DNA of 64,000 nt from Planctomycetota bacterium (GTDB taxonomy: Bacteria; Planctomycetota; Planctomycetia; Pirellulales; UBA1268). Shown one piece after another: positions 20,359 to 47,478 of the stretch. The translations under genes were made by a program, and so were the position numbers. The stretch covers positions 106,694 through 170,693 of the forward strand of contig QWOQ01000007.1 of the NCBI GenBank assembly GCA_003669585.1. The letters are read 5' to 3'. Below the pieces are notes generated by a model. That model worked only from the letters and a program-made list of their open reading frames with translations. It ran no database searches and was not told the origin of the DNA. Position 1 is the first letter of the stretch. The number at the start of each line of letters is the position of its first letter.

Positions 20359-20498
20359 TGGACCTGCTCGACACGCCTTCTGCCGATTGATACTGAGTGG
20401 GCGTCGTTATTGAATGGAAAATAAATTGAGTACGACAATGAGACTCGCCTGACTCTTGCATACGAAAAAAAACAAAACTCTCTTGCAGCTCACAAGAG

Positions 20499-20581
20499 CG
20501 GAGGGCAGGGGATTCGAACCCCCAACCCATTGCTGGGCATCTGATTTCGAATCAGACTGCTGGCCAATTCGCTTACCCTCC
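20499..20581 (-). tRNA. tRNA-Ser (anticodon CGA)
   Basis: The reverse complement reads GGAGGGTAAGCGAATTGGCCAGCAGTCTGATTCGAAATCAGATGCCCAGCAATGGGTTGGGGGTTCGAATCCCCTGCCCTCCG. It has a 7-bp acceptor stem (GGAGGGT/GCCCTCC), an anticodon stem TCTGA/TCAGA with loop TTCGAAA (anticodon CGA), a long variable arm (CCCA-GCAA-TGGG) and a T-arm GGGGG-TTCGAAT-CCCCT. CCA is not encoded. Confidence 0.85.
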
Positions 20582-30331: not shown

Positions 30332-30474
30332 AATCAGCTAGGATTTTATCTCTCTCACTTCGCATGGTTCCGACAATTCCATCTCCGGCTCTGCCTGAAA
30401 CTAATTCACCAGAGTGAGGCCAGAATCTCTTTCGTGATGCCTCCTCCTCGACAAATTCTCGCAATACTGGCATC

Positions 30475-31080
30475 ATGCCTGATTCGTACAAGCACGAAGT
30501 ACTAATCGTTCTGCTTTGCTTTTGTTTTTCACAATTCTTCTTCCGTCATACGAAACCACACACTGTGACATCTCCATCGCTTCCCGCATCGACCACCAGA
30601 TCCCCCACGCGAACTTCCCGAACGCCTTTTCCGCTTTCACACTATGTGCGTACCGGTCCATCGCACGTCGGCACAGGTGTCTTTGCTCGGCGAAGAATGC
30701 GAGCTGACATCGTGATTGGAGAAATTCATGGCGAGATTTTCTCTGAGTCTCCGGAAGACCCCAGTTACTGCATGGAACTCCCGAGTGAAAAAGTGCTCGA
30801 ACCTGTTGCGCCTCTGCGATTCATCAACCATAGTTGCGATCCCAACAGCGAAATCTTTTATTGGGAGGCTGATGACCCCGTCCTGCAGGAGGATCGTTTG
30901 TGGTTACAAACGCTTCGCGTCATCGAATCTGGCGAAGAACTGACGATCGATTACGCTTGGCCGGCCAATGCGGCGATTGTTTGTCGATGTGGTGCAGGTA
31001 CGTGTCGAGGCTGGATCGTTTCACCAGAGGAACTTTCGGATGTTCTCGATCGTGACGTGGCGAACAGCCCTTCCGAATGA
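30475..31080 (+). CDS. SET-domain protein methyltransferase with post-SET Cys cluster
   Basis: GTGVFARRRM, FINHSCDPN, EELTIDYAW and CRCGAGTCRGW (CxCx4C post-SET). The true start is probably downstream of 30475. An in-frame GTG at 30646 would give about 145 aa. Confidence 0.8.
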   Translation: MPDSYKHEVLIVLLCFCFSQFFFRHTKPHTVTSPSLPASTTRSPTRTSRTPFPLSHYVRTGPSHVGTGVFARRRMRADIVIGEIHGEIFSESPEDPSYCMELPSEKVLEPVAPLRFINHSCDPNSEIFYWEADDPVLQEDRLWLQTLRVIESGEELTIDYAWPANAAIVCRCGAGTCRGWIVSPEELSDVLDRDVANSPSE

Positions 31081-40880: not shown

Positions 40881-43616
40881 CTACGACCCGAGCAACTTTC
40901 GAAGGACATATGGAAGAATACCCCCCGAAAGAAACTGGTCGAGTTCAACCGGTGTATCGATTCGCACGCGAGCGGAAAAATCTTCTCTTAAACCGTCTGC
41001 CCGTGTGACTCGCACCATCACGTTCGACCGCGGTTTGAGTGAATCATCAATAGGGATGTCGAACGTCTCCTCGCCTGTAAATCCCATAGACTGCCACGGT
41101 TCTGACAATTCCAGTGGCAAGACTCCCATTCCCACCAGATTCGATCGGTGAATGCGTTCAAAACTTGACGCCAGCACTGCTCGAACCCCCAGGAGCATCG
41201 TGCCCTTCGCGGCCCAATCCCGACTACTGCCAGTTCCGTATTCTTCCCCAGCCAAAATAACCAGCGGCGTGCTGGTTGCCTTATATCTCTCGGCGGCATC
41301 AAACACAGGCATGATCTCACTACCCGGTAGCAGACGAGTAACACCACCTTCTGTCCCAGGAACGAGAAGATTACGAATTCGAATGTTGGCAAACGTGCCA
41401 CGCGTCATCACGCGATCATTTCCACGTCGCGCGCCGTAACTATTAAAATCGACAGGCGAAACTCCATGCTTGACCAGATACTCGCCAGCAGGACTTTTCT
41501 CGGCAATGCTTCCCGCCGGCGAAATGTGGTCGGTCGTGACACTGTCGCCAAGAGCGAGCAAGACCCGCGCTGCCTGAATCGGTTTGGGAGCGATAGCGAG
41601 GCTTGAAAACTCAGTCAGAAACGGCGGTTCCTGCACGTAGGTACTTAAGGAATCCCATCGATAAAGATCTCCAAGAGGGGCAGGGACCGCGTTCCACGCC
41701 GGATTTGAATTCCATACGTTTTCGTATCTCACGCGAAACATTTCCGGTTGAACACTCTGTTCAACATGCTGACGAACTTCGTCGGCCGAAGGCCAAAGAT
41801 CAGACAGATGCACCGGTTTTCCATCGTTTCCTATTCCAATTGGCTCACTCGAAAGATCGATGTCGGTTGTGCCGGCAAGTGCGTAGGCAACCACCAGCGG
41901 CGGACTCGCCAGCCAGTTTGCCTTCACCATCGGATTCACGCGTCCTTCGAAATTCCGATTTCCAGAGAGAACCGCTGCTGCCACAAGATCTCCTTCTAAG
42001 ATTGCTTGGGAAACCGGTTGAGGTAATGGACCAGAATTTCCAATGCAGGTAGTGCACCCGTACCCAACCGTTTGAAATCCCAGCGCATTGAGATCTTCAG
42101 ACAATTTTGATCGCTCAAGATAATCACTCACCACACGCGACCCCGGTGCGAGACTCGTCTTCACCCACGGCTTTACCTGCAAACCGCGTTCTCTCGCTTT
42201 TCGAGCGACCAGTCCGGCCGCGATCATCACGCTCGGATTACTCGTATTGGTGCAACTAGTAATAGCAGCAATGACAACCGCTCCATGATGAATCGCTGTA
42301 CTCTTCCCATCGACGGTAACGGTTCCACTATTGTGAATCGACGTTTTATCAATCGCAAAACCACGATTCGACGTCGGAGCACTGAGTAAATCGCCAAACG
42401 TTTTTTTAACATTCGCAAGCGCAACGCGGTCTTGTGGACGTTTTGGACCAGCCAGACATGGTTCGATTGAACCCAAATCAAGTGACAGTCGCGATGTGAA
42501 TTCTGGGACGCTGCCAGAGTCCGTGCGAAACAGTCCTTGCTCCTTGGTATATCGCTCCACGAGTTCGACCTGAGCATCGCTGCGGCCAGTGAGCCGCAAG
42601 TAGCGAAGCGTCTCGTCATCGATTGGGAAAAATCCCATCGTTGCACCGTATTCAGGAGCCATGTTGGCGATTGTCGCCCTATCAGCCAACGACATACTTT
42701 TTAGCCCTGATCCAAAGAACTCAACGAATTTTCCGACGACGCCTCGCTTTCGAAGAATTTCCGTCACCGTGAGCACCAGATCGGTAGCCGTTGCACCTTC
42801 CGGAAGCCGACCGAGAAGCTCGAATCCGACAACCTCCGGCAAAAGAAGCGACATCGCCTGTCCGAGCATGACCGCTTCGGCCTCAATACCACCAACTCCC
42901 CAGCCAACTACACCGAGTCCGTTAATCATCGTGGTGTGACTGTCGGTACCTACAAGCGTGTCAGGAATCGCCACCTTCGGCCCGCCCGGCGATACAGGAT
43001 CGTCTCTTAGAAAAACACACCCGGCGAGATATTCAAGATTAACTTGGTGCACAATTCCTATCGACGGGGGAACCACACGAAAATTACTGAAGGCCTGCTG
43101 GCCCCAGCGTAAAAACGAGTATCGTTCGCCGTTGCGTGCAAACTCAATTTCTACATTCTTGTCGAGCGCACTCGATGAACCGAAAAAGTCGACCTGCACA
43201 GAGTGATCGACCACTAGGTCCACCGGCACCAACGGATTGATTTTGGAAGGATCACCACCGAGGCGTTTGAGAGCCGCGCGCATCGCAGCCAGATCAACGA
43301 CACACGGCACTCCAGTAAAGTCCTGAAGCACAACTCTTGATGGCTTAAAGGGAATCTCAATTTCGGCAGGCTTTGCAGCGTTCCAGGTTGCAAGACTTCT
43401 GATATCGGATTCTGTCACCTCATATCCGTCGGCATTGCGCAGCAGCGACTCAAGAATCGTGCGAATCGAATAGGGAAGCCGAGACGAGTTTGTCACGCCG
43501 GCATCATCGAGTGATTGCAAGCGGTAGATCGTTGCTTCTCCGCTGCCACTGTCGAACGATTGCCTTGCGTGAAATGGATCGATGCGTGCAACGGCTTTTT
43601 TATTCATGATGGACAT
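40881..43616 (-). CDS. acnA: Aconitate hydratase A
   Basis: 911 aa. [66 protein letters not shown] and SGNRNFEGR are all classic AcnA/IRP blocks. Confidence 0.95.
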
Positions 43617-44054
43617 TCACTCTTCTAAGCGTGTTGTGATGAGCTTTGTTGGGCATACCCATTTCGCAACCCAGCGGTGTAATGGATATATAAAAACATT
43701 TTCTGTAATGGCAAGAATCTACAGTTTTTCGCAGGTTTGTCGGTGAATAGAGTCTTGGGTGCGACAAGAACGAGTGCTCGCTGAGAAGCGATTGTCACCG
43801 AACTCATTGTGCAAGTGCGTGACAATGCCAAAGAGTCGGAATCCGCTGGTACGGAGAAAAACCCTTTAAAAAAGCCATTTTTAAAATTTATTGAGTCTCT
43901 GTTCGACAGATGAACATCTGCGGGCTATAGTTCGTTCAGCCGGAGAGGTTCATCTACTTTTTGAATGTTCTTGAATTTTCAAGACTTTGTTTAGATCGCA
44001 GTTTGAAACTTTTCTGCCGAAGTGGATTTAAAACCTGCTTCTTCCTAAGTCTTA

Positions 44055-44142
44055 TCGGCGGCTGATTCCCCCCCCAAAGACCCTCACTTCTAAAGCCGCC
44101 ATCGGGCCTGTGGTTTTTTTAAACCACAGGCCCTTTTCTTTT
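44055..44142 (+). ncRNA. Candidate structured RNA element, copy 1 (GGCGGC / C8 / TCACTTCT / GCCGCC core plus terminator hairpin)
   Basis: tcGGCGGC (44055-44062), C8 tract, tcacttct, GCCGCC (44095-44100). Then a perfect 13-bp hairpin gggcctgtggttt/aaaccacaggccc (44104-44133) and ttttctttt. No plausible ORF. Confidence 0.35.
44104..44142 (+). terminator. Rho-independent terminator-like hairpin
   Basis: 13-bp perfect stem (44104-44116 / 44121-44133), 4-nt loop, followed on the + strand by TTTTCTTTT (44134-44142). Confidence 0.6.
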
Positions 44143-44307
44143 GATCGAAGAAATTTCAGCGACAGTAACGGAAAATTCAACTGCTCTTGAGATTTGGATG
44201 CCACACGCAATTCTGGTCAAACGCTCATCATATTCTCAGTGAGTGGCCGCTAGAGTGCGTCTCGTCGATCGGAGCAATCCAGACGAGCGATCGATTCAAT
44301 AAACTTT

Positions 44308-44383
44308 TCGGCGGCCAGTTTCCCCCCCCAGTTGATCACTTCTTGTGCCGCCTTGAGGCTGCAGGCATCCAGCCTGCAGCCTC
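44308..44383 (+). ncRNA. Candidate structured RNA element, copy 2 (same core, different perfect hairpin)
   Basis: tcGGCGGC (44308-44315), C8 tract (44322-44329), tcacttct, GCCGCC (44347-44352). Then a 12-bp perfect hairpin gaggctgcaggc/gcctgcagcctc (44355-44383). About 200 nt upstream of the DUF1559 gene. Confidence 0.35.
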
Positions 44384-44579
44384 ATCTCATTGTTCAACCT
44401 GGTGCGTATGTCAATGAAAGTCTCTGAGCCTTTTTCTTTTCTCACAAGTGTCTTCCAGCAGAAGCCGTAAGTCGAGCGATACAATAGACTGAAATTTGCC
44501 ACTGACTCACAATTCCCCTACTTTTCTTCCGACCATCAGTTTTTGAAAGAGTTTCCACAAAAGTCCTGCGTAGAAATGC

Positions 44580-45596
44580 ATGGGCACCGTGAACACCGAC
44601 TCTCACAATCGCCGAAACGCTTTTACTCTTATTGAATTGTTAGTCGTGTTGGCAATTCTTGCTGTGTTGATTGGTCTCTTGCTTCCAGCGGTGCAGGCGG
44701 CTCGTGAGGCAAGTCGAAGATTGCACTGCAGTAACAATCTGCGCAACATTGGTTTGGCAATGCACCATTACGCTGTCACTCGCGAATATTTTCCAGCAGG
44801 ACAATTGGCGTATCGAATTGGCACCGGATTTAAAACTGTCGCGTGGAGCGTTCACTTTCTTGACTATCTTGATCAGTCTCCTATTTCACTCTCAAAAGAT
44901 CCTGTTGGAGACTCCTCTGTCGATGCTCCAGATTCAAGGCTGTACGTGCTCGCTCCGCTGGCAAGTCAATACAATCACAAGGCTACTACCACAACGATTC
45001 CGACCTATCTCTGCCCCAGTTCCGCACGTCGGCATCCGTCGCGAGGCAGCGATCAACGAATTGTAGATCTTAACGGCAATAACATGTACGACCCTCTGAC
45101 CGGCGAAGGGATGGCAGCGATCGATTATGCGGGCATCAGCGGTGCAACCCCAAACGCTTCGCGATTCCTGAATTCAATCACAGGCTTGGTCTATGACGAC
45201 AACAACGGCGTGTTGCTGAATGTCTCTACCGGTGGAGGAAAAACCGTGACGATTGCGGAGATCACCGATGGACTTTCTCACACGCTGCTCGTCGGTGAAC
45301 TCAGCGGACGTGGTGTTCTTGGCACCGATTTCAGGGGAGTCTGGGCTGCCGGACAAAACTGTATCACGATCCCCCGAAATGCTTTCGGAGTTCCTCACAT
45401 AAATCCCTCCGCCACGTCACCGACATTTGACGCATGGCCGACCACGGCGAACGCATCGCTTTTTTCGGACCATACGTCGGGTGTCAATGGACTCCTCTGC
45501 GATGGCTCAACGAGATTTATTTCGGACATGATTTCACTCTCTGCATTTGTGGCAATGGGCAGTCGTTCCGGAGGCGAGGTGCCACTCGCTCCTTAA
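44580..45596 (+). CDS. DUF1559 protein with prepilin-type N-terminal methylation domain and H-X9-DG motif
   Basis: 338 aa. [51 protein letters not shown] is the canonical planctomycete DUF1559 N-terminus. The C-terminal [20 protein letters not shown] gives H-x9-DG. Confidence 0.9.
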
Positions 45597-45672: not shown

Positions 45673-47478
45673 TCACTGGACTCCCGAACCTCGAAGATGC
45701 TCGGTCAAAATAGCCTCGACTTCATCGATTGTGAGAGGATGATGATGAACGCGAACATGTGTCGCTGGAACAATCAATTCACTTACTGCGCCGCTGGTTT
45801 TCGCACTCGCCATTGATACCACGCAGTCTCCCGGCCCGCTGGTGAGCGACTGATGTTCATTGCCAATCACACTGTGCATTGCAACGGTGCAACGTGGATG
45901 CAAATGTTCAATCGCCTGAAGAATTTTTGAGTTTGGCTGCAGGATATCGACAGTCGTTGGCAATCCCTTGCTGTAATCAGCAAAAAATGCTCCCGGATTG
46001 CAATCCACCATTTCTCTGTGCAATTCCACAAGTTCTTGAGGTTTTTTTACCATCATTGAAGAGACCCTTCCGATTCCCAAAGAAGCAATGGTTGACCCAC
46101 GGTGCGGCGTCGCAATGCAGATCACTCTTCTGATAAAAGGTCTTGCTTCGAAAAAAAACTGACTGCGAAACTCCTCTTTTGCTTTTTCGGACATCCGCAG
46201 CGATTCAAACGGAACACAGGCAACTGCATTCCACAGTTCGACGCCCGAATCGATTACCTGCAACTTGGCATGAATTCCGCCGAGACTGTGGCCAACCATT
46301 ACCATATGCCGCAATGCACTGTCTTGACCCTGCGGATCGCAGATTGCCACCGCAGCAGTCAGCTCTTTTCTCAGCACTGCAGAAGAATGCAGAAATCCGC
46401 TACCCGTTGGATAGTGAAAGACCCACGGCTCAAAATATCTATGAAAGGGAGGCCACATTCTTAGTTCATTAATCATGTCGAACCACGTGCCTTCGTCGGA
46501 AACCAATCCATGAATAAACACGACAGGAATTCGGCCGGCTTGGTGAGGTTCCAGCATCTCTAAACGCGGTTGTGTCTGTTCACCAACAAGAAGAGAGTTT
46601 GAAAATGGATTCATAAAACCATTCAAGCCCGATTTCGGCATACCAGCGAGCATGTCTAACAGTGGCGCCGTGAAATCGGCAGCGAGCGGGTTCTTGATCG
46701 AACCGATCTGCACGCGTGCAATCTCTACTGGGTTGGCAAGATCGAGAACTGCTGGAGAGACGTCCGCATGCACAAGACCGACGAGTTCTGAAAGCTTGTT
46801 TGGCTTGTCGAGCGGAATCGAAAAGCGAAGCACTGCTGTTGCGGCAATCGATTGCCTCGGAGGTGCAAATTCACCGCTGACAAGCTTCGCTTTCGTTCGG
46901 ACAGCTACCGGTAGTCCAAAACCACATCGGGTATGACGCCTTGTGATTCGAGCGCTTCCCTCTAGGGGTGCCGGTAGCACTGCCTCAATGACTGACGCAT
47001 CAACCGGGAGTCCCTGTGTCACGATAGGAATAACAACCCTGCCCCATTTCGGACCTATCAGAATGCCTCGTGCTGGATCGATTCGTCCATGCTTCGACGC
47101 ACTTTCAAGAAGCCCACGAAGGCTCTGTGAATAAATCTCCGAGGCCTCATCGACAACATCTCGCGAATCAGGACAGAGCCATATCGCATTCCAGGCCGCC
47201 TGCGCCGCGGCAAAGTATCCCTCGATTGCCCGCGGTTCACACTTTTGCGCGATCGTATTGGATCCCAGAAGCAATGTTTTGGCCTGTGACACCGAGGCCT
47301 TGGCCCGATCATGGAGGGAAGGCTCCTGTCGCGGTGACGCCATTGGATTGATCGGTACAGCCCCCACCGGCTGACAGAATGCAACTCCAAGAATCACCAT
47401 CACGATTGCGAATTCTGCTGCGATCGCTGGGACCGTGTGTGGACGATGTCGTGATTGTTCACTCACAAAAAACTTCAC
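45673..47478 (-). CDS. Alpha/beta-fold hydrolase (lipase/esterase-like) with a long N-terminal domain
   Basis: 601 aa. N-terminal TM/signal. PVVFIHGLVSDEGTW (oxyanion region) and the nucleophile elbow MVGHSLGG. Confidence 0.6.
   Translation of the reverse strand: MKFFVSEQSRHRPHTVPAIAAEFAIVMVILGVAFCQPVGAVPINPMASPRQEPSLHDRAKASVSQAKTLLLGSNTIAQKCEPRAIEGYFAAAQAAWNAIWLCPDSRDVVDEASEIYSQSLRGLLESASKHGRIDPARGILIGPKWGRVVIPIVTQGLPVDASVIEAVLPAPLEGSARITRRHTRCGFGLPVAVRTKAKLVSGEFAPPRQSIAATAVLRFSIPLDKPNKLSELVGLVHADVSPAVLDLANPVEIARVQIGSIKNPLAADFTAPLLDMLAGMPKSGLNGFMNPFSNSLLVGEQTQPRLEMLEPHQAGRIPVVFIHGLVSDEGTWFDMINELRMWPPFHRYFEPWVFHYPTGSGFLHSSAVLRKELTAAVAICDPQGQDSALRHMVMVGHSLGGIHAKLQVIDSGVELWNAVACVPFESLRMSEKAKEEFRSQFFFEARPFIRRVICIATPHRGSTIASLGIGRVSSMMVKKPQELVELHREMVDCNPGAFFADYSKGLPTTVDILQPNSKILQAIEHLHPRCTVAMHSVIGNEHQSLTSGPGDCVVSMASAKTSGAVSELIVPATHVRVHHHPLTIDEVEAILTEHLRGSGVQ

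Follow-up and report, generated by a model that had tools for sequence, protein, structure and literature searches.

In this study, we analyzed a 64-kb stretch of DNA (hereafter called the window) from an uncultured Planctomycetota bacterium (contig QWOQ01000007.1, a metagenomic scaffold of 415 kb), in which an intergenic region of 960 nt lies between acnA, encoding aconitate hydratase A, and a gene of the DUF1559/prepilin type. This single intergenic region holds two copies of a structured element, both on the + strand. We read copy 1 as the probable gene of a small non-coding RNA (sRNA) and copy 2 as its duplicate, and the positions of their parts are listed in Table 1.

Table 1. Positions in the window of the two elements, their parts and the flanking genes
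Feature	Position	Strand	Description
acnA (aconitate hydratase A, 911 amino acids)	40881-43616	-	Pfam Aconitase and Aconitase_C, E = 1e-166; divergent to the RNA
Copy 1 promoter	43903-43931	+	TCGACA (-35), 17-nt spacer, TATAGT (-10); A/T tract ahead; 126 nt before the stem
Copy 1 predicted transcript, ~205 nt	43938-44143	+	5' end inferred ~7 nt past the -10 box; 3' end in the U-tract
Copy 1 element	44057-44142	+	Homologous to copy 2
Copy 1 large-loop hairpin	44057-44100	+	GGCGGC/GCCGCC stem; 32-nt loop UGAUU-C8-AAAGACCCUCACUUCUAAA; presumed seed region
Copy 1 stem arms	44057-44062; 44095-44100	+	GGCGGC; GCCGCC
Copy 1 loop, 32 nt	44063-44094	+	C8 at 44068-44075; TCACTTCT at 44084-44091
Copy 1 perfect 13-bp hairpin	44104-44133	+	Loop UUUU; then TTTTCTTTT
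Copy 1 intrinsic terminator	44104-44142	+	13-bp hairpin, then TTTTCTTTT; scored terminator-like
Copy 2 element	44310-44384	+	Homologous to copy 1
Copy 2 large-loop hairpin	44310-44352	+	GGCGGC/GCCGCC stem; 31-nt loop CAGUUU-C8-AGUUGAUCACUUCUUGU
Copy 2 stem arms	44310-44315; 44347-44352	+	GGCGGC; GCCGCC
Copy 2 loop landmarks	44322-44329; 44336-44343	+	C8; TCACTTCT
Copy 2 3' hairpin, perfect 13 bp	44354-44384	+	Loop AUCCA; then TCTCATTGTT; scored terminator-like
DUF1559/prepilin-type gene	44580-45596	+	Other flank of the intergenic region

The two elements lie 253 nt apart. Folding of the + strand gave, for each of them, a GC stem of 6-7 bp with a loop of 31-32 nt and then the hairpin of 13 bp, with a z-score of -6.0. 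The composite pattern GGCGGC...C6+...TCACTTCT occurred exactly twice in the 64 kb, compared with no occurrence in 100 dinucleotide-preserving shuffles, and no run of eight or more C was found in the window beyond the two copies. An earlier note on this DNA had described two tandem GGCGGC-C8-octamer-GCCGCC motifs with a loop of about 32 nt, some 250 nt apart and each followed by a perfect hairpin, and this description holds. The note was also right that only copy 1 has a U-tract, because TCTCATTGTT after the copy 2 hairpin is poor and not a real U-tract. The location that it gave (44041-44400) takes in both cores, but copy 1 begins outside it, at its promoter. A covariance model built from 88 sequences of relatives matched copy 1 with 110 bits (44038-44157) and copy 2 with 69 bits (44291-44407, E ~9e-20), and because both copies score on this model, they are homologous.

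The relatives were found in two ways. Five loci with acnA orthologues (AcnA approximately 80% identical, three of the loci near-identical) were retrieved through the protein and independently of the motif, and all five carry one copy of the element beside acnA. A scan of a genome collection with the exact loop 19-mer CCCCCCCCAAAGACCCNCAC gave 96 loci, one per species-level genome and nearly all from Planctomycetota metagenome-assembled genomes (MAGs) of lakes (many of them from Lake Mendota and other lake series), compared with a chance expectation that we estimate at about 4. Outside the search pattern, the sequence is near-invariant as well: the 5' flank reads UCUCUUCA-GCGGCUGUU, the 3' flank reads (N)UC(N)A(N)AGCCGC, and every locus goes on to a GC-rich hairpin and UUUUCUUUU. 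A core of approximately 50 nt is almost invariant, although the AcnA proteins of these genomes are only 74-85% identical to that of the window. The C run varies within this core, being 8, 9, 10, 11, 12, and 13 nt long in 22, 26, 35, 9, 3, and 1 loci, respectively. The covariance model detected a single copy in every one of 100 related loci, and no second copy was seen within these loci of up to approximately 15 kb. The tandem duplication is therefore specific to the lineage of the window.

The family shares one architecture, which consists of an A-tract, a promoter TCGACA-17/18-TAnnnT, a variable 5' hairpin, a CA-rich linker, the GCGGC stem with its C8-13 AAAGACCCACAC loop, and a terminator. 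Of 94 distinct upstream regions, 93 had the A-tract and the near-invariant promoter, placed 47-89 nt ahead of the GCGGC stem. In the window, no sigma-70-like site other than the promoter of copy 1 was found on the + strand of the intergenic region. The predicted RNA of the relatives is approximately 135 nt long, and its full-length folds have three hairpins (z from -4.6 to -6.8), of which the 5' hairpin differs in sequence between species. The predicted transcript of copy 1 has an AT-rich 5' part that is longer than that of the relatives, and it folds into a structured 5' part, an unpaired stretch, the large-loop hairpin, and the terminator (z = -5.3). The unpaired linker is composed of 42% A, 38% C, 10% G, and 11% T. 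In the loop of approximately 30 nt, the C run of 8-13 nt is followed by AAAGACCC and then by CAC(N)UC, and of the loop elements, the C run and CAC(N)UC are kept in both window copies and throughout the relatives.

The large-loop hairpin of copy 1 aligned with the near-invariant core of 86 relatives. Covariation, which the earlier note had proposed to test, was examined across the family. The terminator helix had compensatory changes in seven of its ten pairs, with 99.8% of the cells paired. Both sides had changed in 72 cells, compared with 15.9 ± 3.3 in shuffled alignments (none of 500 shuffles was as high) and 1-5 in slid controls. The observation of the earlier note that the 3' hairpins keep their structure while changing their sequence thus extends from the two copies to the whole family. 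Three mechanically called open reading frames (ORFs) of 52-76 amino acids overlap the region, and none had a match in a Pfam search. Because a C run of 8-13 nt would shift any frame, a reading frame in this region is implausible, and the transcript of one relative (L002) contains no AUG. The RNA is predicted to be non-coding, in agreement with the view that the region has no credible ORF.

The neighborhood of the element was compared across the 96 genome loci, of which six are cut too short to show the neighbor, leaving 90 informative loci. acnA is the divergent neighbor in 82 loci, where the distance between its start and the C run is 230-400 nt; it is co-oriented and downstream of the RNA in seven, and in one it lies 3 kb off, behind an inserted DUF1559 gene. 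In total, acnA directly adjoins the RNA gene in 89 of the 90 informative loci. The gene downstream of the RNA is variable and may be a DUF1559 gene, a convergent gene of 601 amino acids with no known function (at least 10 loci), or acnA itself, and the informative neighbor is therefore acnA and not the DUF1559 gene to which the earlier note had pointed. In the seven co-oriented species (L009, L031, L033, L047, L051, L080, and L085), the RNA module is inverted in place. The order there is DUF1559 (-), RNA (+), acnA (+), and aminotransferase (+), and only the RNA module has been flipped, with its promoter and terminator retained. The inverted module lies approximately 130 nt upstream of acnA in the same direction (approximately 1 kb in L047), and acnA keeps its own promoter-like TACGAT box (GGTTCGCTACGATACGC) between the terminator and its ATG. 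Because the downstream gene is variable or convergent and the module can be inverted in place, we believe that the element would be an independent RNA gene and not a leader, a riboswitch, or a dispersed repeat. These comparisons show that acnA is the only constant association of what appears to be an autonomous transcription unit. A further observation is that GACAC occurs in the -35 box of the RNA (TCGACAC) and, in many relatives, just upstream of the putative -35 box of acnA (GGACAC-TTCTC...TA(G/C)GCT). Speculatively, GACAC is a candidate for a half-site shared by one regulator; the acnA promoter region of the window has no GACAC.

We believe with moderate confidence that copy 1 is an independently transcribed gene for a small non-coding RNA, that copy 2 is its duplicate, and that the RNA acts in trans by pairing. 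The existence of an expressed, independent RNA gene is in itself very probable, and trans-acting pairing with G-rich ribosome-binding sites, the likeliest mode of action, has slightly better than an even chance by analogy with known sRNAs. In the proposed mechanism, the promoter next to acnA (A-tract, TCGACA, 17-18 nt, TAnnnT) would drive the RNA, and the Rho-independent terminator would end it. The invariant GC stem of 5 bp would present the single-stranded loop of approximately 30 nt, and the C run of the loop would pair with G runs at translation start regions of the Shine-Dalgarno type. CACCUC or CACUUC, which is like the anti-Shine-Dalgarno sequence CACCUCC of 16S ribosomal RNA, would pair with the Shine-Dalgarno sequence, and C-to-U changes would still allow pairing with G. 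For example, GAUCACUUCUU of copy 2 differs from GAUCACCUCCUU by C-to-U changes only, and from the 3' end of 16S ribosomal RNA, we presume that pairing with G is kept. The loop pairing would then block ribosome binding, as for the C-rich-loop sRNAs 6C, sX13, and RsaE/RoxS. The features that are generally expected of a trans-encoded sRNA are present, namely, a positionally conserved promoter, a covarying Rho-independent terminator, and a predicted non-coding RNA that is indifferent to its flanking genes. Among the options listed in the earlier note, a C-rich-loop sRNA directed at G-rich ribosome-binding sites fits this anatomy best. Given its strict linkage to acnA, the RNA may take part in regulating central carbon or iron-dependent metabolism, or it may share its transcriptional control with acnA.

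Rfam 15 at gathering scores gave only tRNA in the whole window, and permissive scans of positions 43600-44600 (E up to 10) and of the relative L002 gave nothing near threshold. The proposal of a new sRNA or cis-leader family is thus upheld as to a new structured-RNA family and given up as to the cis leader. The only sub-threshold resemblances were found in L002, to ar14, 6C, sX13, and LhrC, all of which are C-rich-loop sRNAs. The family therefore appears to be new, whereas its kind is a known one, that of small regulatory RNAs that have a C-rich seed loop and end in an intrinsic terminator. The ar14 or 'cuckoo' RNA (RF02344; Alphaproteobacteria) scored 23.3 bits against a gathering score of 58.8, and its motif CCUCCUCCC is absent from our family alignment; LhrC (RF00616; Listeria) scored 20.2 bits against 110. 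Both are known for pyrimidine-rich or C-rich loop motifs (UCCC and CCUCCUCCC) and for multi-copy or tandem sRNA genes. In contrast, the family described here has a C8-13 homopolymer with CAC(N)UC, and tandem duplication occurs only in the species of the window. In Helicobacter pylori, RepG uses a C/U-rich loop to pair with a G homopolymer in the leader of an mRNA; the length of this repeat varies and tunes regulation. The variable tract of that system is in the target, whereas here it is in the RNA (8-13 C), and RepG is a precedent for pairing between homopolymers.

Studies have shown that the C runs in the hairpin loops of 6C pair with G-rich mRNA sites in a chaperone-independent manner, without Hfq (PMC6486639), and that sX13 uses C-rich apical loops, also independently of Hfq, to repress mRNAs with a G-rich motif at the ribosome-binding site (PMC3771888). 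The 6C RNA (RF01066; Actinobacteria; M. tuberculosis B11/6C) matched L002 over the whole model with 21.4 bits (E 0.5-0.8), compared with a gathering score of 47, and had no match in the window region 43600-44600 at E up to 10. A further likeness to 6C is the CCCC that the terminator loop of many relatives contains. However, 6C has two compact hairpin loops with at least six C each, whereas here a single C-rich loop of approximately 30 nt stands on 5 bp, and the terminator loops (UUUU in copy 1, AUCCA in copy 2, no more than CCCC in the relatives) fall short of the six C of a 6C loop. The other phylum, the fixed acnA neighbor, and the conserved CA-rich linker also set the family apart from 6C. 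Similarly, sX13 (RF02232; Xanthomonas) scored 20.6 bits in L002 against a gathering score of 50 and had no match in the window. It belongs to another phylum, has three stable stems with short C-rich loops where the family here has one C-rich loop, and shares no sequence homology with it. RsaE/RoxS, whose C-rich regions act on G-rich Shine-Dalgarno sequences and which regulates genes of the tricarboxylic acid (TCA) cycle (PMC6158497, PMC8216469), had no Rfam 15 match in the window (E up to 10) or in L002 (two scans, with E up to 10 and up to 1). IsrR, FsrA, and RyhB, which repress aconitase (PMC11257911), also had no Rfam match here, and no Fur-box-like site was identified. Together with RsaE/RoxS, they set a precedent, as to function, for linking an sRNA with aconitase and central metabolism. 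The iron-sparing sRNAs target aconitase, whereas here aconitase is the neighbor, with a start region that the loop is predicted not to bind.

Several results weigh against the proposed RNA and its mode of action. The adjacency to acnA may be partly inherited synteny. The five GC pairs of the large-loop stem are invariant, and covariation supports one pair only; the foot pair of this stem is A-U in 70 sequences, G-U in 9, and G-C in 2, the last being the window copies. The near-total conservation of the core of approximately 50 nt could equally reflect protein binding, and the conservation of the loop is partly a matter of ascertainment, as 19 nt were fixed by the search pattern. For copy 2, no canonical promoter was recognized, and its U-tract is poor, as stated above. 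Tests of candidate targets also gave results on this side. The loop binds the start region of acnA worse than 99% of the acnA coding windows (median rank 0.99, 69 loci), because the acnA leaders are G-poor, and this start region is predicted not to be the target of the loop in the relatives. At the 3' end of acnA (40921-40926, - strand), UCUUUCGGGGGG is complementary, but for one bulge, to CCCCCC-AAAGA of the loop, and the relatives have GGCGGC or GGTGGC there. This complementarity is probably due to chance; the codons concerned encode S-G-G of the motif GGILPYVLR. For the start regions of the 64-kb window, the best duplex energies were within the distribution of random windows.

A BLAST search for complementary sites in 676 kb of related loci gave only trivial GC-rich matches. 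Among the start regions of neighboring genes, weak signals were obtained for the 601-amino-acid gene, which we call p601 (median rank 0.07, n = 6), and for the aminotransferase gene (0.19). The p601 protein is conserved and has no Pfam match; the stretch concerned in the window is approximately 47343-47478 (- strand), and homologues are present in L019, L046, L050, L059, L089, L091, L099, and other loci. The likely start codon often has a run of G4-G6 no more than approximately 20 nt away, and the start region outranks most coding windows for pairing with the loop, although this enrichment is weak and the position of the starts is uncertain. The p601 start region is a possible target and is offered as a lead only.

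By its covariance-model score, copy 2 is a true paralogue and a lineage-specific tandem duplicate of copy 1. A metagenome scan for the lineage of the window returned one contig only (L103), which leaves copy 2 without evolutionary depth. This contig belongs to another strain of the window's species, at 99.1% identity, and carries the tandem pair with the same spacing. The two strains differ by 22 single-nucleotide polymorphisms (SNPs) across the intergenic region, of which none falls within 43993-44174 (copy 1). The core of copy 2 has a single SNP, located in the hairpin loop (position 44367), and its flanks carry many. This pattern weakly supports constraint on both copies. In the loop of copy 2, the AAAGACCC segment has been replaced. 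Upstream of the copy 2 stem, UGGCCGCU (44244-44251) can pair with GGCGGCCA (44310-44317), the 5' arm of that stem. When 44243-44395 is folded, this pairing is predicted to displace the large-loop hairpin, and the relatives have no equivalent.

It is possible, and in our judgment somewhat doubtful, that only copy 1 is functional and that copy 2 is a decaying, non-expressed duplicate, so that 'two tandem RNAs' would be an overstatement. The two defects of copy 2 named above would fit such decay, as would the replaced part of its loop, its lower covariance-model score (69 vs 110 bits), and the lack of a second copy in any of the relatives' loci. However, copy 2 retains a perfect stem of 6 bp, the exact C8 (a mutation-prone homopolymer), CACUUCU, and a perfect 3' hairpin of 13 bp, its core differs between the strains only in the hairpin loop while the flanks carry many SNPs, and a -10-like TATTCT (44231-44236) lies 73 nt before its stem, inside the range of the family. 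The tandem arrangement had also led to the suggestion of a cis-acting 5' leader of the DUF1559 gene, either an attenuator with a terminator and an antiterminator or a tandem riboswitch-like element. Both window copies are indeed upstream of this gene and in the same direction, a DUF1559 gene is downstream in several relatives too, and the pairing of UGGCCGCU with the copy 2 stem could be taken for a switch. We nevertheless consider such a leader very improbable, because the relatives have a single copy whose own conserved promoter is just approximately 55 nt away from the stem, the strong terminator lies 170-450 nt from the next gene, no conserved alternative (antiterminator) pairing was found in the consensus fold of the family, the downstream gene is not conserved and is convergent in at least 10 loci, and the module is inverted in place in seven species. 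A dispersed structured repeat of the repetitive extragenic palindrome (REP) type, a mobile element remnant, or a small protein-coding gene might be thought of because two similar copies occupy one intergenic region and mechanical ORFs overlap them. A genome-specific repeat does not agree with one copy per locus at a constant genomic position and no further strong match in the 64 kb (a single weak match of 22 bits), and a coding gene does not agree with C-run steps that are not multiples of three and the lack of a Pfam match; this explanation has almost no likelihood left.

The RNA could instead be a decoy or sponge, in which the stem with its poly-C loop binds a factor that recognizes C-rich RNA, such as a translational regulator that binds the acnA leader, or Rho, and titrates it. 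The preferred ligand of Rho is C-rich unstructured RNA. This explanation would account for the adjacency to acnA, which direct pairing does not, and the near-invariant core of approximately 50 nt exceeds what a short seed needs. The acnA 5' leaders of the GC-rich relatives (60 nt before the ATG, L002-L102) are unusually rich in C, with 44% C and 21% G, and 48% of 89 leaders have C runs of at least five, often just 5' of the AAGG ribosome-binding site and thus like C(n)-AAAG of the RNA. Such runs occur in none of 33 aminotransferase leaders and none of six p601 leaders, yet they occur in 27% of 15 DUF1559 leaders. However, the acnA leader of the window itself (43617-43700, - strand) is not C-rich and has no C run, despite the two RNA copies. 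Moreover, each RNA has a single motif, whereas the known sponges CsrB and CrcZ carry many, the control set of leaders is small, and the factor is hypothetical. We therefore regard a decoy as unlikely. Still less likely is a special form of it, in which the RNA mimics the C-rich acnA leader and the shared 'C-run + AA(A)G' is bound by a translational regulator, Rho, or apo-aconitase, so that competition sets the output of aconitase. In that case, the C length of 8-13 nt would be an evolvable tuning knob, and, if true, this would be a new type of RNA-decoy circuit and, for Planctomycetota, the first description of a post-transcriptional regulatory system. A hairpin that binds aconitase in the manner of an iron-responsive element was also considered and rejected, as no CAGUG loop with a bulged C was found on inspection of the folds and the alignment.

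No planctomycete sRNA was found in the literature searched. A census of 2022 gives only 8 sRNAs for the whole PVC (Planctomycetes, Verrucomicrobia, and Chlamydiae) group (PMC9029176), and a review of 2025 covering a century of Planctomycetota research does not mention sRNAs, riboswitches, or Hfq (PMC12673574). If our reading of a trans-acting sRNA is right, this would be the first well-defined sRNA family of Planctomycetota, with clear gene boundaries and approximately 96 species-level representatives from abundant freshwater lineages. With it, a mechanism known from Actinobacteria, Firmicutes, and Proteobacteria, in which a C-rich loop pairs with G-rich ribosome-binding sites, would reach a fourth major lineage. 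The strict linkage to aconitase points to the control of the TCA cycle or of iron- or redox-dependent metabolism, and the family is in shape for an Rfam entry.

Some minor observations were made during the analysis. In one MAG (JBBDNW01), two contigs (L019 and L055) both stop inside the RNA gene or at its edge, which points to assembly breakage at a sequence that is highly conserved and contains a homopolymer. Eleven contigs with a planctomycete-type acnA and the RNA (L014, L031, L037, L042, L043, L046, L049, L053, L074, L076, and L084) come from records labelled 'Candidatus Kuenenia' or 'Chitinophagaceae', and these are probably mislabelled or mis-binned MAGs. A third, weak match to the covariance model was found in the window at 30414-30532 (+ strand; 22.3 bits, E ~7e-5, fold z = -2.7), between an AP_endonuc_2 gene and a SET-domain gene. 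It has AAUCUCUUUC, then a stem of 9 bp (GUGAUGCC.../...GGCAUCAU) that closes a 27-nt loop beginning with UCCUCCUC, and then a U-rich stretch. Candidate explanations are a distant paralogue whose loop resembles an anti-Shine-Dalgarno sequence, a leader belonging to the SET gene, and a chance match. The tRNA in the window is a tRNA-Ser(CGA) with a long variable arm at 20498-20581 (- strand), which scored 31.4 bits against a gathering score of 29 and was confirmed by ARAGORN.

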